From positions 96,001 through 160,000 of IMG/VR virus record IMGVR_UViG_3300025405_000009: DNA of 64,000 nt; one strand, given 5' to 3'. Positions 11,570-57,467 of this stretch are shown here, piece by piece. The number at the start of each line of letters is the position of its first letter. Positions within the stretch are counted from its first letter, which is position 1. The notes under the pieces were generated by a model. It saw nothing but the letters and a program-made list of their open reading frames with translations, searched no databases and was not told where the DNA came from. Origin of the DNA: a virus. The position numbers and the translations under genes are program-made.

Positions 11570-12519
11570 AAAAAATAGTATACATTACAGGTTGTTTAGG
11601 TTTTATAGGTTCACATGTAACACGACAATGTTTAGAACGTGGATGGTATGTCAAAGGTGTAGATAAAGAAACATATGCAGCAAATCTTACTTTACTAGAT
11701 GAATTTAAGAAATATAAAAACTTTTCATATACAAATTGCGATATTAACGAATTGACATTTTTATATGAATGTGATTATATTATAAACACTGCAGCTGAAA
11801 CACATGTTGGTAATTCAATTGTAGATAGCAAAGACTTTGTAAAGTCAAATATTGATGGTGTGCACAACTTACTTGAGTTAATTAAAAATTATCGACACGA
11901 AACAAATAAAAAGCCAATACTACTACATTTTAGTACTGATGAAGTTTACGGTGATATTACTAACGGATCGCACATAGAGACAGATTTACTTAAACCTAGC
12001 AATCCATATTCTGCTACCAAAGCAGCAGCGGATATGTTAATATTAGCATGGAATAGAACGTATAATATAAATTATATTATTGTTCGACCAACAAATAATT
12101 ACGGTTGTGGACAATATGTTGAAAAATTAATTCCAAAAACATTAAAATATCTTGAACTCGGTCGCAAGATTCAGTTACATGAAGGTGGTACACCCATACG
12201 TAATTGGCTACATGCTGAGGATACAGCTAATGCTATTATGACAATTATTAATTCAGGTGTAACTAACGATATTTTTAATATTGCAGGTGGGTTTGAGCAA
12301 TCAAATATTGATACAGTTAAACAAATCATACAAAACTATTTTGGTACTTTAGATGGTTATGAGCAATATCTAGACTTATCATATAGTAGACCTGGTATGG
12401 ATACACGATATGCTCTTGATGATAATAAACTTAGATCACTTAATTGGATGCCTACAAAAAAATTTAATATTGAAATAAAAAATATTGTCAATTATTACAA
12501 AGAAAGATTTATATGGTAG
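11566..12519 (+). CDS. rfbB: NDP (dTDP-type)-glucose 4,6-dehydratase
   Basis: TGCLGFIG, DKETYAA, AAETHVGNSI, STDEVYG, PSNPYSATKAAAD, NNYG..QYVEKLIP; the nucleotide handle cannot be determined from motifs. Confidence 0.85.
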   Translation: MKKIVYITGCLGFIGSHVTRQCLERGWYVKGVDKETYAANLTLLDEFKKYKNFSYTNCDINELTFLYECDYIINTAAETHVGNSIVDSKDFVKSNIDGVHNLLELIKNYRHETNKKPILLHFSTDEVYGDITNGSHIETDLLKPSNPYSATKAAADMLILAWNRTYNINYIIVRPTNNYGCGQYVEKLIPKTLKYLELGRKIQLHEGGTPIRNWLHAEDTANAIMTIINSGVTNDIFNIAGGFEQSNIDTVKQIIQNYFGTLDGYEQYLDLSYSRPGMDTRYALDDNKLRSLNWMPTKKFNIEIKNIVNYYKERFIW

Positions 12520-13213: not shown

Positions 13214-13750
13214 ATGAATTATTTTAATGAATTAAAGCGAGCTATGAACTATCTTGCCAAAGATAGTCGTACAATTTTTATTGGACAGGCAGTAAAGTAT
13301 GGTGGTACGGGATTGTACGATACTTTAATTGAAGTACCTGATAATAAAAAAATTGAATTTCCAGTAGCTGAATATTTACAATGTGGTGTTGCTAATGGTT
13401 TAGCAATTCAAGGATTAATACCTGTATCTCTAATACCAAGATGGAATTTTTTGTTAATGGGAACAGATCAAATAATAAATCATTTAGATAAATTTATATT
13501 AATGTCAGATGGTAGTTGTACTCCCAACGTTATTATCCGTGTAGCTGTTGGTAGTGAACGTCCAGTCGATCCGCAAGATCAACACAAAGGCAATTTTACA
13601 GATGCATTTAGATCTATGTGTAAGACAATAGAAATAATAGAACTAAAAGAGCCCGAAGATATAATGCCTGCTTATATTAAAGCATTAACAAGAACGGATG
13701 GTAAGAGTACAATATTAGTAGAATTTGGTGATTTTATAAAAGAAAAGTAA
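13214..13750 (+). CDS. ThDP-dependent E1 beta/transketolase pyrimidine-binding subunit (short)
   Basis: FIGQAV, EFPVAE..QCGVANGLA, DQIINHLDK, DPQDQH. Confidence 0.8.
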   Translation: MNYFNELKRAMNYLAKDSRTIFIGQAVKYGGTGLYDTLIEVPDNKKIEFPVAEYLQCGVANGLAIQGLIPVSLIPRWNFLLMGTDQIINHLDKFILMSDGSCTPNVIIRVAVGSERPVDPQDQHKGNFTDAFRSMCKTIEIIELKEPEDIMPAYIKALTRTDGKSTILVEFGDFIKEK

Positions 13751-13751
13751 A

Positions 13752-14543
13752 ATGATAAATGTATTAATAACTGGATGTTCAGGTTATATTGCTACAGCAT
13801 TAATACATTCGTTACAAAAAAAGTATAATATTACAGCAATAGGTCGCAAAGATTTTAATTTGGCAGATCAAACTGCAACAGATAATTGGTTTAAAAATAA
13901 ACAATTTGATGTTGTATTGCATACAGCTAGTATATTAGGTGGTCGCTTTCAAGATAATAATAATAATGTTTTATTAACAAATCTTAAAATGTTTTTTAAT
14001 CTTGTTAAAAACAAAAATAAATTTAAAAAATTTATTAATTTTGGATCTGGTATAGAAAAGTACCCATATGAAAGTTATTATAGCTTGAGTAAAAGTATAA
14101 TTAAAACGTTTGTTGAACGCAAACAAACGTTTTACAATTTAAGAATATATGGTATATTTGATTCAAATGAAATGAATACACGATTTATTAAAAATAATAT
14201 AATAAATTATATTAATAAACAACCAATCATAATAAATCAAAATAGATATATGGATTTTATCTATATGGACGATTTAACAAAACTTGTTGAATATTGTATT
14301 GATAATACAATATTAAAAAAAACAATTAATTGTGTATACAAAGAAAAATATACACTTAATAATATTGCAAATATTATAAATTGTTTAGATACATATACAG
14401 TTCCTATTATTCTTAATAAGAAAGGTATGAATACAAAATATATCGGTACATTTAATCTACCAATTAATCCTATAGGATTAAAAGAAGGTATTAAAAAAAC
14501 ATTTATGCATTTGCAATCACAGCATACATCACATATAATTTAA
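13752..14543 (+). CDS. NAD-dependent epimerase/reductase (extended SDR)
   Basis: TGCSGYIA, FGSG, YSLSK (YxxxK), LRIYGIF, MDFIYMDD. Confidence 0.8.
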   Translation: MINVLITGCSGYIATALIHSLQKKYNITAIGRKDFNLADQTATDNWFKNKQFDVVLHTASILGGRFQDNNNNVLLTNLKMFFNLVKNKNKFKKFINFGSGIEKYPYESYYSLSKSIIKTFVERKQTFYNLRIYGIFDSNEMNTRFIKNNIINYINKQPIIINQNRYMDFIYMDDLTKLVEYCIDNTILKKTINCVYKEKYTLNNIANIINCLDTYTVPIILNKKGMNTKYIGTFNLPINPIGLKEGIKKTFMHLQSQHTSHII

Positions 14544-46033: not shown

Positions 46034-46484
46034 GGGGGCGTACTGGTTTCGACTTATACTCGAAGTTTGTATGGCACGTAGTGGTTAATCAGTTGGCCAC
46101 TTTAAAAAGCTGATTAAAAACATAAATGCAGAAGATAACTCTGACGCTATCCTTGCGGAAGCATTGTATTGTCTCGAGAACGCTGACGAAATCCTCGCCA
46201 GCTTTGAAGAGCCAGCACTCCTAGCTGCCTAAGGAACCAAAAGATAATCCTATTAAAGCTTTTGGAAATAAAAATAGGTTTAGAAGGTCTTGTGATTCTT
46301 AGAAAATTGAGTGCAAGCGGTGGTATGTGGTCGTTAATCACACATACAGGTAGGACTCTAAACATGGATAGGTCGCTAGTGCCTGGTTACCTTTAGTCAA
46401 CCAAAGTACGAAAGCTAGCTAAGCGTGTAGAAGTATAAATAGAAAAGTATAAACACAGGGGTTCGACTCCCCTCGCCTCCACCA
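46034..46484 (+). ncRNA. ssrA: tmRNA with tag AEDNSDAILAEALYCLENADEILASFEEPALLAA (46128-46232)
   Basis: 5' GGGGGCGTACTGGTTTCGAC; 3' GGGTTCGACTCCCCTCGCCTCCACCA; resume context ATAAATGCA; tag ends LLAA-TAA. Confidence 0.95.
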
Positions 46485-49313: not shown

Positions 49314-49388
49314 GGAGATGTAGCATAATGGCAATGCACTTCTTTGCCAAAGAAGATACTGCCGGTTCGAGCCCGGTCATCTCCTCCA
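49314..49388 (+). tRNA. tRNA-Gly(GCC)
   Basis: GGAGATG/CATCTCC-T-CCA; CTTCT-TTGCCAA-AGAAG. Confidence 0.95.
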
Positions 49389-51197: not shown

Positions 51198-51710
51198 ATG
51201 AAATCTAAACTAGAACCTTTTAAAGAAGATGTAATAAAAATGTATGTTGATGAAAAATTAACATGCAAACAAATAGGATTAAAATTTAAAATAAGACCAG
51301 GGCCTGTTTCAAGTTTTCTTATTAAAAATAATGTAAAGCTACGTAATGCTGGTCAACAGAAAGGTAGACCCGGTACGAATAAAGGAAAGAAATTTGTAGA
51401 ACGTACATTGGCATACAATACACAACTTATTGAAAGCGGTGAATATAAAAAACTTCACGAAGCAGGTATAAGGAGCCGTATACGTAAATATCTAATTAAC
51501 AAATATGGACATAAATGTCAAATATGTGGTCTGTCTGAATGGAGAGGACATGCTATACCTCTTGTATGCGATCACATAGACGGATCTGCTAAAAATTGTG
51601 AATTAGAGAATTTTAGAGTGATTTGTAATAATTGCGACTCTATACTACCTACATATAAAGGTAAAAATAGAGGCAGAGGTAGAAAACTTAACGGGAGCGT
51701 GACTGAGTGA
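51198..51710 (+). CDS. HNH homing endonuclease with N-terminal HTH
   Basis: KCQICGLSEW...LVCDHIDG..KNCELENFRVICNNCDS..TYKGKN; overlaps the tRNA by 18 nt. Confidence 0.85.
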   Translation: MKSKLEPFKEDVIKMYVDEKLTCKQIGLKFKIRPGPVSSFLIKNNVKLRNAGQQKGRPGTNKGKKFVERTLAYNTQLIESGEYKKLHEAGIRSRIRKYLINKYGHKCQICGLSEWRGHAIPLVCDHIDGSAKNCELENFRVICNNCDSILPTYKGKNRGRGRKLNGSVTE

Positions 51711-51783
51711 TTTAAAGTGATCGATTACTAATCGATTGAACCCTAATAAGGTTCCGTGGGTTTGAATCCCACCGCTCCTTCCA
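51693..51783 (+). tRNA. Class II tRNA with anticodon ACT (putative tRNA-Ser for AGT)
   Basis: GGGAGCG/CGCTCCT-T-CCA; ATCGA-TTACTAA-TCGAT; variable arm GAACC/GGTTC; T arm GTGGG-TTTGAAT-CCCAC. Confidence 0.85.
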
Positions 51784-51828
51784 TTTTTTTTCTTGACTTA
51801 ATACTTAAATACTCTAATATAAATGAAT

Positions 51829-51919
51829 GGACAGGTGGCAGAGTTGGTCTATTGCATCTGACTTGAAATCAGAAGTACCCGAAAGGGTACCGTGGGTTCG
51901 AATCCTACCCTGTCCGCCA
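51829..51919 (+). tRNA. tRNA-Ser(TGA)
   Basis: GGACAGG/CCTGTCC-G-CCA; TCTGA-CTTGAAA-TCAGA; long variable arm. Confidence 0.95.
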
Positions 51920-56454: not shown

Positions 56455-57036
56455 ATGACTAACTTAAACTGCGCATCCGTTCTTATTTTAAACCGAAATT
56501 GGCAAGCAATTCATGTAAAATCAGCGGCAGAGGCTCTTTCTATGATGTATGTAGGTAACGCTACAGGCTTAGATATCGCCGGCTTTGATAATATGGTACC
56601 ATACAAGTGGGAGAATTGGGTCTCTCTACCTTTTGATGAAAAGGCTGAATATGTCAGCACCATACGTGGTCAAATAAAGGTCCCCAAGGTTATTGTGTTA
56701 TGTGAATATGATAAAGTTCCAAAGAGAAGACCGAAATTTTCATCTAAAGCTATTTGGAATAGAGATGAAGGTACCTGTCAATATACTGGTAAGAAGCTAA
56801 CACCGAATGAAGCAAATATCGATCATGTTTTACCAAGAAGTAAGGGAGGTAGGACAACATGGACAAATTGTGTTCTCTCCCACAAAGAAGTAAATCATAA
56901 GAAAGGTAATAGAACACCTGAAGAAGCTGGACTCAAACTCATCCGTCAACCATATGAGCCTAGAGCAGTTCCAACAATGCTTTATATTAACAATCACCAG
57001 AATATTCCTGAATGGGATATCTTTTTAAAGCTATGA
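56455..57036 (+). CDS. HNH endonuclease (McrA-like)
   Basis: VLILNRNWQ, RDEGTCQYTG, NIDHVLPRSKGG.TTWTNCV....N.KKGNRTPEEAG. Confidence 0.9.
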   Translation: MTNLNCASVLILNRNWQAIHVKSAAEALSMMYVGNATGLDIAGFDNMVPYKWENWVSLPFDEKAEYVSTIRGQIKVPKVIVLCEYDKVPKRRPKFSSKAIWNRDEGTCQYTGKKLTPNEANIDHVLPRSKGGRTTWTNCVLSHKEVNHKKGNRTPEEAGLKLIRQPYEPRAVPTMLYINNHQNIPEWDIFLKL

Positions 57037-57467
57037 GTAGACCTTCATGGGATGAATACGCCATGCAACTTGCAATGGTGGCAGCATTAAGATCAGAAGA
57101 TCCAAGAACTAAAGTTGGTTGTTGTCTTTTACGATATGATCATACAGTAGCAAGTTTAGGGTATAATGGAGCTCCATCAGGAGTAGAAATTGAGTGGCAC
57201 AATCGAGTGGAAAAACATAAAAGAGTAATTCACGCTGAGGTTAATGCTTGTAGAATGATAAAGCCTGGAGAGTGTTATCTTGCTGCTATAACTCACGCTC
57301 CTTGTAATGATTGTCTAAAAACATTAGCAGCTTACGGAATTAAAAAGATAGTTTATGTAGAGTCATATAAATTTGATGAATCATATTCACCTGAAAACAT
57401 TGCAAAAGATTATGGAATTGAAATAATACAGCTATCTGCATCATTGAAATCTGTTTTTATGTCTTAA
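57033..57467 (+). CDS. dCMP deaminase
   Basis: MSRPSWDEY, KVGC, GYNGAPSG, HAEVNA, PCNDC. Confidence 0.9.
   Translation: MSRPSWDEYAMQLAMVAALRSEDPRTKVGCCLLRYDHTVASLGYNGAPSGVEIEWHNRVEKHKRVIHAEVNACRMIKPGECYLAAITHAPCNDCLKTLAAYGIKKIVYVESYKFDESYSPENIAKDYGIEIIQLSASLKSVFMS

Follow-up and report, generated by a model that had tools for sequence, protein, structure and literature searches.

The virus genome studied here carries a real tRNA-Ser(ACU) gene that has been maintained in evolution and is neither an assembly error nor a decaying copy. It lies within the window, the 64,000 nucleotides analyzed here, which are bases 96001-160000 of a 198,847-bp IMG/VR virus record (G+C ~34%, completeness estimate 91%). 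The gene adds a well-documented example to a class of tRNAs that has been overlooked, and the marks specific to its clade or lineage are the discriminator U73, the pair G1-U72 and the tertiary pair A19-U56 (Table 1). We think it probable that its product is a working tRNA charged by the host seryl-tRNA synthetase and dedicated to AGU codons, with an unmodified A34 and a compensatory A19-U56 pair, and that the HNH endonuclease gene overlapping it is a mobile passenger.

The initial annotation had described a class II cloverleaf with the anticodon ACT in the loop TTACTAA, and a discriminator U instead of the G usual for serine tRNAs. Both descriptions agree with the sequence, and the cloverleaf also with ARAGORN, which calls a tRNA-Ser(act) on the plus strand, and with Rfam (RF00005, 50.6 bits, E 6.8e-8; gathering score 29). 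The lowest-energy fold is the long-arm cloverleaf (-29.6 kcal/mol, z -3.43), equaled by none of 200 shuffles. It consists of the acceptor stem GGGAGCG/CGCTCCT, a D stem of 3 bp (A10-U25, C11-G24 and U12-A23), the anticodon stem ATCGA/TCGAT, a long variable arm with the 5-bp stem GAACC/GGTTC, and the T stem GTGGG/CCCAC with the T loop TTTGAAT. The D loop has 11 nt, GAGTGATTTAA, and position 19 was placed in it by alignment on the standard serine D loop GAGYGGYYNAA. An encoded CCA directly follows the discriminator T at 51780. The pair 1-72 is G-U (51693/51779), a point absent from the initial annotation.

Table 1. Coordinates, in the window, of the tRNA-Ser(ACU) gene, its diagnostic positions and its neighbors
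Feature	Position	Strand	Basis or remark
HNH endonuclease gene, 170 aa	51198..51710	+	ORF list; PHROG HNH endonuclease, E 7.7e-20
tRNA-Ser(ACU) gene	51693..51783	+	Class II, 91 nt, CCA encoded; ARAGORN, Rfam, MFE, covariation
A19, D loop (normally G19); also last base of the HNH stop TGA	51710..51710	+	Sequence
Anticodon ACT (A34 C35 U36), loop TTACTAA	51727..51729	+	Sequence; loop invariant in all clade copies
U56, T loop TTTGAAT (normally C56); partner of A19	51763..51763	+	Sequence
U72 (G1-U72 with 51693) and U73 discriminator	51779..51780	+	Sequence; clade alignment
Promoter-like site TTGACT, 16 nt, TAATAT, for the next gene	51793..51820	+	Consensus scan
Partner tRNA-Ser(UGA)	51829..51919	+	ARAGORN; Rfam 60.4 bits

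An exact-pattern scan of IMG/VR with the gene's own anticodon arm, any anticodon being allowed, returned no matches, and relatives were reached through the adjoining 367-aa protein, which led to nine related contigs. At the corresponding position, five of the nine carry a tRNA-Ser(act), with tRNA-Ser(tga) and tRNA-Cys usually coming next. The partner tRNA-Ser(UGA) of the window has the canonical G1-C72 and G73, and this neighbor stays adjoining the ACU tRNA in six related loci (L001, L003, L005, L145, L146 and L153). Against cultured phages, neither blastn with the ACU tRNA nor tblastn with the 367-aa protein gave a match. A ribonucleotide reductase search gave distant matches only, uninformative on the host.

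We aligned 14 clade copies of tRNA-Ser(ACT) for a covariation test, with 500 shuffles and slid registers as controls. The loop TTACTAA is invariant and the stems have diverged; 99.7% of the cells of the alignment form a standard pair, and both sides have changed in 21 of the 26 pairs. None of the 500 shuffles reaches the covariation values of the clade, and the slid registers come nowhere near them. All five pairs of the variable-arm stem covary, and G2-C71 is invariant in all 14 copies. The proposal of a functional, selected tRNA is thus borne out, and the relatives hold intact copies, not decayed ones. Since the same features recur in independent metagenomes, an assembly error is ruled out, and the strong purifying selection on the fold in the clade copies excludes a relic.

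G19 and C56 normally form a conserved tertiary pair of Watson-Crick type at the tRNA's outer corner, with R57 stacked between this pair and G18-U55 (PMC7912444). The claim that A19 and U56 preserve this contact as an A-U pair holds across the viral ACT tRNAs. Our set comprised the 121 ARAGORN-confirmed tRNA-Ser(act) genes in the matching loci listed. All 117 copies with C56 (T loop TTCGAAT) have G19, with GG in the D loop, and all four with U56 have A19, with GA, a motif that among the ACT matches listed occurs only there; the mixed states A19/C56 and G19/U56 are absent from the ACT tRNAs among these matches. Within the 14 clade copies the pair is GC in 10, AU in four, and mismatched in none. 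A second scan that demanded TTTGAAT matched 32 contigs, three of them with an ACT tRNA (L145, L146 and L153); the other 29 have no ACT tRNA and were treated as chance matches.

The four A19/U56 copies, those of the window, L145, L146 and L153, come from different metagenomes. They have a common acceptor stem, whereas their anticodon stems (A-U/U-A versus U-A/C-G) and variable loops show compensatory differences. Because they have diverged further elsewhere, the swapped pair must have persisted through that divergence. These patterns argue that A19-U56 is a genuine compensatory replacement of G19-C56 and that selection has acted on the fold; the replacement would have arisen in one sub-lineage, keeping the fold intact. 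The swap is no one-off. It is a rare but recurrent variant across phage tRNAs: U56 occurs in nine of 700 phage tRNAs of the sampled loci, eight of the nine with GA in the D loop, and the isotypes with U56 and GA include Lys, Gln and a tRNA with a CUA anticodon. Such tRNAs ('Pyl'/CUA suppressor-like, Lys, Gln) lie at L023 2704-2774, L028 8738-8811 and 9901-9973, and L076 8864-8937.

Serine tRNAs with this anticodon are far from confined to the clade. A review describes A34 as 'universally missing' in the Ser-Arg box and in split codon boxes, with phages lacking the same genes, and tRNA-Gly(ACC) as universally missing too, in phages and cells alike (PMC8007984). We scanned viral sequences for the loop TTACTAA with a T arm 20-36 nt downstream of it. 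At least 119 IMG/VR contigs match, and ARAGORN confirmed the 121 tRNA-Ser(act) genes across viral loci (the matches listed plus the scan for U56); ACT serine tRNAs thus occur in more than 110 IMG/VR contigs. The same pattern, run on one genome per prokaryotic species, matches at least 120 loci, and 82 of the 120 listed were confirmed by ARAGORN, mostly in MAGs of Patescibacteria (CPR). These cellular copies share the anticodon loop on a serine body. G1-C72 and G73 are present in nearly all of those listed and G19/C56 in every one, and 39 of the 82 confirmed have tRNA-Ser(gct) in the same locus, whereas the phage has no GCT gene.

Cultured jumbo phages have the class as well. The gene at 266654-266744 of Salmonella phage Munch (MK268344.1), annotated only as 'tRNA-Ser', has the anticodon ACT according to ARAGORN, and matches to this type of tRNA are also found in Salmonella phages 7t3 and SE_PL, Klebsiella phage fENko-Kae01 and Erwinia phage Hallingskeid. 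Like the gene of the window, the Munch gene combines a class II serine-type body with ACT and lies among the phage's own genes; it differs in its loop CTACTAA (C32 instead of U32), in A73 and G1-C72 (instead of U73 and G1-U72) and in G19/C56 (instead of A19/U56), and the similarity is too low for a direct blastn link. Our literature search turned up no paper centered on phage tRNA-Ser(ACU), which appears there as table entries for chloroviruses only (PMC4810235, PMC7589089). The rarity attributed to this anticodon in the initial annotation therefore holds for the textbook picture, but not for uncultured phages and Patescibacteria, where it is common.

A parallel case involves glycine. The relatives L003 (9530-9605) and L008 (752-826) carry a tRNA-Gly(ACC), by alignment a clear orthologue of the tRNA-Gly(GCC) at 49314-49388 of the window. 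The change from Gly(GCC) to Gly(ACC) in these two relatives is thus another case of A34 in place of G34, again in favor of a codon ending in U.

Codon usage fits a dedicated reader of AGU. Across 199 long ORFs of the whole genome, AGT is the commonest serine codon (1337 occurrences, 30% of Ser codons) and outnumbers AGC (341) by about 4:1; AGA is the commonest arginine codon (724, 41% of Arg codons), and GGT makes up 63% of Gly codons. The largest ORFs are the densest in AGT, with 4-5 per 100 codons. Its abundance had been noted from the sequence and ascribed to fiber genes; the abundance stands, but the fiber label is not confirmed, the PHROG searches of the AGT-richest large ORFs having returned no named function. 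ARAGORN counts 17 tRNA genes in the genome, 10 of them within the window, and none of the 17 is a tRNA-Ser(GCT). Indeed, ACT and GCT are mutually exclusive in the sampled phage loci: GCT is present in one of 115 ACT loci, and ACT in none of 107 GCT loci. In phages, then, the ACU tRNA fills the place that the GCU tRNA holds in other phages. The AGT share of serine codons is 29% in ACT phage loci versus 18% in GCT phage loci, a difference that, when matched for GC, is significant in the 35-40% bin only and comes from loci that are not phylogenetically independent. This comparative test weakly supports codon matching.

The standard AGY reader, tRNA-Ser(GCU), has the same class II architecture and serves the same codon box, and its G34 reads both AGC and AGU; the A34 of the phage tRNA is expected to read AGU only. 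We propose that A34 stays an unmodified adenosine and that the tRNA would pair by Watson-Crick geometry with AGU alone, so that an AT-rich phage would gain a dedicated reader for a codon for which the host tRNA-Ser(GCU) depends on G-U wobble. Since a GCU tRNA suffices for many AT-rich phages, an advantage of A34 over G34 is something that we only infer. The only direct decoding data for the anticodon come from an orthogonal ACU tRNA in E. coli, engineered from an M. jannaschii tRNA with a synthetic, class I, Tyr-accepting body as opposed to the natural serine-type body of the phage tRNA (PMC11066159). It decoded AGU at 9.4% and AGG at 0.36%, with AGC and AGA below detection, and its cDNA contained no inosine; changes at loop position 32 are enough to block TadA (PMC11066159). 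The earlier suggestion that the tRNA boosts AGT decoding fits both the codon usage and these data (PMC11066159). The AGU-only mechanism thus draws on comparative data, on the gene content and codon usage of the phage, and on a single published experiment in E. coli.

Alternatively, A34 could be converted to inosine by the TadA of the host or by an unrecognized phage enzyme, which would extend the reading of this one tRNA from AGU to AGC and, weakly, to AGA. Bacterial A34 tRNAs are classically I34 tRNAs (PMC8007984), and the host of the relative L402 presumably has TadA, since L402 carries a tRNA-Arg(ACG). This gene (L402 3374-3450) lies three genes from tRNA-Ser(ACT), placing a classical TadA substrate together with a presumed non-substrate A34 tRNA. 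We nevertheless regard inosine at A34 as unlikely. tRNA-Arg(ACG), the one standard bacterial A34 tRNA, likewise has an encoded A34 and the loop bases U33-A34-C35, but the phage loop departs from this TadA substrate at two positions, with U32 and U36 instead of C32 and G36, and it serves a split codon box. There inosine would misread AGA, risking serine-for-arginine errors at the commonest arginine codon of the phage. The ACU tRNA tested in E. coli was not deaminated and left AGC unread (PMC11066159). Moreover, we found no TadA-like deaminase in the phage genome: its sole protein with a cytidine/adenosine-deaminase fold (57012-57467) matches dCMP-deaminase/ComEB-type families and has no TadA-family match. 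(Just before this gene lies a second HNH-domain ORF, at 56455-57036 of the window, of 193 aa and with Cas9/IscB-type HNH matches.) In Patescibacteria, finally, the frequent adjacency of ACT to GCT would be redundant if I34 read AGC.

Another possibility is that the tRNA is a spare that replaces a host tRNA-Ser(GCU) cleaved by a defense nuclease, with A34, and perhaps also U73, G1-U72 and A19-U56, making it a poor substrate. Some phage tRNAs are known to escape host nucleases by way of altered anticodon loops, and the acceptor end and elbow of the clade copy are unusual where those of the co-resident Ser(UGA) are canonical. We know of no nuclease, however, that targets tRNA-Ser(GCU), and an A34 that narrows decoding to AGU would not replace the GCU tRNA at AGC codons. 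Free-living Patescibacteria keep the ACU tRNA beside a GCU gene, which points to a role in decoding, and A19-U56 is also found in unrelated phage tRNAs (Lys, Gln). Evasion of a nuclease, raised in the initial annotation, finds no support in our results and has, in our judgment, a small chance of being the explanation, and we return to a dedicated AGU reader as the preferred reading.

For such a reader to insert serine it has to be charged with serine, which we infer to be likely. With the anticodon masked, we compared the body of the tRNA with class II tRNAs for Ser, Leu and Tyr. The best identities to serine tRNAs of every anticodon are 0.72-0.77 (medians 0.63-0.65), against 0.61-0.68 for Leu and Tyr, so that the margin in favor of serine is modest. 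The best identity to any sampled GCT tRNA is 0.76; the ACU tRNA is thus no recent point mutant of a GCT tRNA. In a noisy tree of class II tRNAs, whose resolution is too poor to tell a single from a multiple origin of ACT, the ACT genes group with those for Ser and separately from the Leu and Tyr clusters. In E. coli, C11-G24, G2-C71 and the long arm are serine identity elements, and the phage tRNA has these along with a 3-bp D stem, an 11-nt D loop and a stem in the long arm. The synthetase of E. coli is said to prefer G73 and G1-C72, the bases of bacterial tRNA-Ser, where the phage gene has U73 and G1-U72. Twelve of the 14 clade copies have U73 and the remaining two A73; G1-U72 is found in 10 of the 14. 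Among the 91 viral ACT copies with a clear register in the matches listed, 73 have G73 and 15 have U73. Since most viral ACU tRNAs have G73, U73 marks this phage clade and not ACU tRNAs generally.

No SerRS-type catalytic core was found in this phage genome, so the host enzyme must serve both Ser(ACU) and Ser(UGA). The host synthetase would charge the ACU tRNA on recognizing its long arm and acceptor stem, irrespective of the anticodon, and would evidently tolerate U73 and G1-U72 as features of the clade. It is very improbable that these two features instead direct the charging of another amino acid, with AGU partly recoded, or that the gene is a non-functional relic. Bacterial Gly and Cys tRNAs have U73 as their discriminator, and the A73 of two clade copies is that of Leu and Tyr; but the D arm, the long arm and the sequence of the body as a whole resemble those of serine tRNAs, and class I-type Gly and Cys synthetases would not, to our knowledge, accept a long-arm tRNA with an ACU anticodon. 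Recoding would be lethal with AGT the commonest serine codon in conserved proteins, and the relic version is excluded by the selection on the fold.

Other odd tRNAs accompany this one. Outside the window, the same genome (G000) has at 168588-168680 a 93-nt tRNA called Ile(tat) by ARAGORN, with a class I-type D arm and a variable region of ~23 nt; this type is also present at L002 15898-15988 and L007 16409-16503, and recurs in 9-14 other phage loci. At G000 169080-169155, again outside the window, and at L002 16328-16403 lies a 76-nt tRNA with the anticodon TAA ('Leu') and no long variable arm. Bacterial Leu tRNAs belong to class II.

The adjacent HNH ORF had been reported to overlap the 5' end of the tRNA, and it does so by its last 18 nt, its TGA stop (51708-51710) ending on A19. 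Its HNH assignment comes from the best PHROG match (Table 1) and from visible CxxC...DH...N...CxxC motifs. The gene is patchy at one and the same site, being present in the window, L402 and L403 and absent from L005, L145 and L153. Its homologues lie beside serine tRNA genes in seven of nine related loci, immediately upstream of Ser(ACT) or Ser(TGA) in six and just after Ser(GCT) in the seventh; they are found at L402 2501-3087 and L403 2501-2988, and also in L404-L406 and L407. We therefore read the gene, from its distribution, as behaving like a homing-type gene with serine tRNA genes as its landing area, a mobile passenger that would merely happen to end inside the tRNA. Phage T4 SegB is a GIY-YIG homing endonuclease of the T4 tRNA gene region, and the two are alike as free-standing endonuclease genes in a phage tRNA cluster that are present or absent among close relatives; the gene of the window differs in encoding an HNH protein and in overlapping a tRNA by 18 nt. 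The closest relative with G19/C56, L005, has a GIY-YIG-like ORF (11942-12511, minus strand) and a Cys-rich ORF (13411-14265, minus strand) that overlaps tRNA-Cys, which suggests that several mobile nuclease genes populate the tRNA cluster.

That G19 became A to provide the HNH stop codon or immunity to the endonuclease, with C56 to U repairing the tRNA, could call on the shared base, on the repeated place of the family beside serine tRNA genes and on the presence of both an HNH gene and A19/U56 in the window and L146, but it has almost no probability and is largely refuted by distribution: L145 and L153 have A19/U56 with no HNH gene within reach, the 79% identical HNH gene of L402 runs into a Ser(ACT) gene that has G19/C56, its ORF just ending at a TAA within the D loop, and with G19 the ORF of the window would gain only seven codons before a TAA. 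The part that A19 plays in the stop codon is thus incidental, and the HNH overlap does not explain A19.

The overlap may have consequences for expression. The consensus scan finds no promoter-like site between the HNH gene and the tRNA of the window, the nearest candidates being inside the HNH gene. L145 and L153 have such a site directly upstream of the tRNA, and in L146 (same contig as L403) the HNH gene lies 61 nt upstream of the tRNA with a promoter-like site in between. Since the window, unlike these relatives, has no such site directly upstream, its tRNA may be cut from the HNH transcript. The site downstream of the tRNA, which precedes the next gene (Table 1), delimits the ACU tRNA unit on its 3' side, and the same element follows the tRNA in L005. 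Co-transcription and a processing conflict are possible. A more speculative suggestion, which we consider a long shot, is that the overlap is a built-in switch, each transcript yielding either the tRNA or the endonuclease, with the nuclease kept scarce. RNase P cutting at 51692/51693 would remove the last six HNH codons and the stop, and the resulting non-stop mRNA would be handled by trans-translation through the phage's own tmRNA. This tmRNA is encoded at 46034-46484 of the window (Rfam RF00023, 114.8 bits), at the head of the tRNA cluster. The U73, G1-U72 and A19-U56 changes of the clade could tune the processing of the HNH/tRNA junction.

The finding bears on several questions. That G19-C56 and A19-U56 replace each other so strictly offers a clean example from nature of a near-invariant elbow pair that is held by pairing and not by base identity, and the HNH family beside serine tRNA genes is an added case of mobile nucleases landing in tRNA clusters. 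The clade keeps a tRNA-Ser(ACU) under clear purifying selection, against the 'universally missing' of reviews (PMC8007984). Carriers of Ser(ACU) and Gly(ACC) are a natural test bed for why cells avoid A34, for whether an unmodified A34 reads only U-ending codons, and for how AT-rich phages tune their translation.
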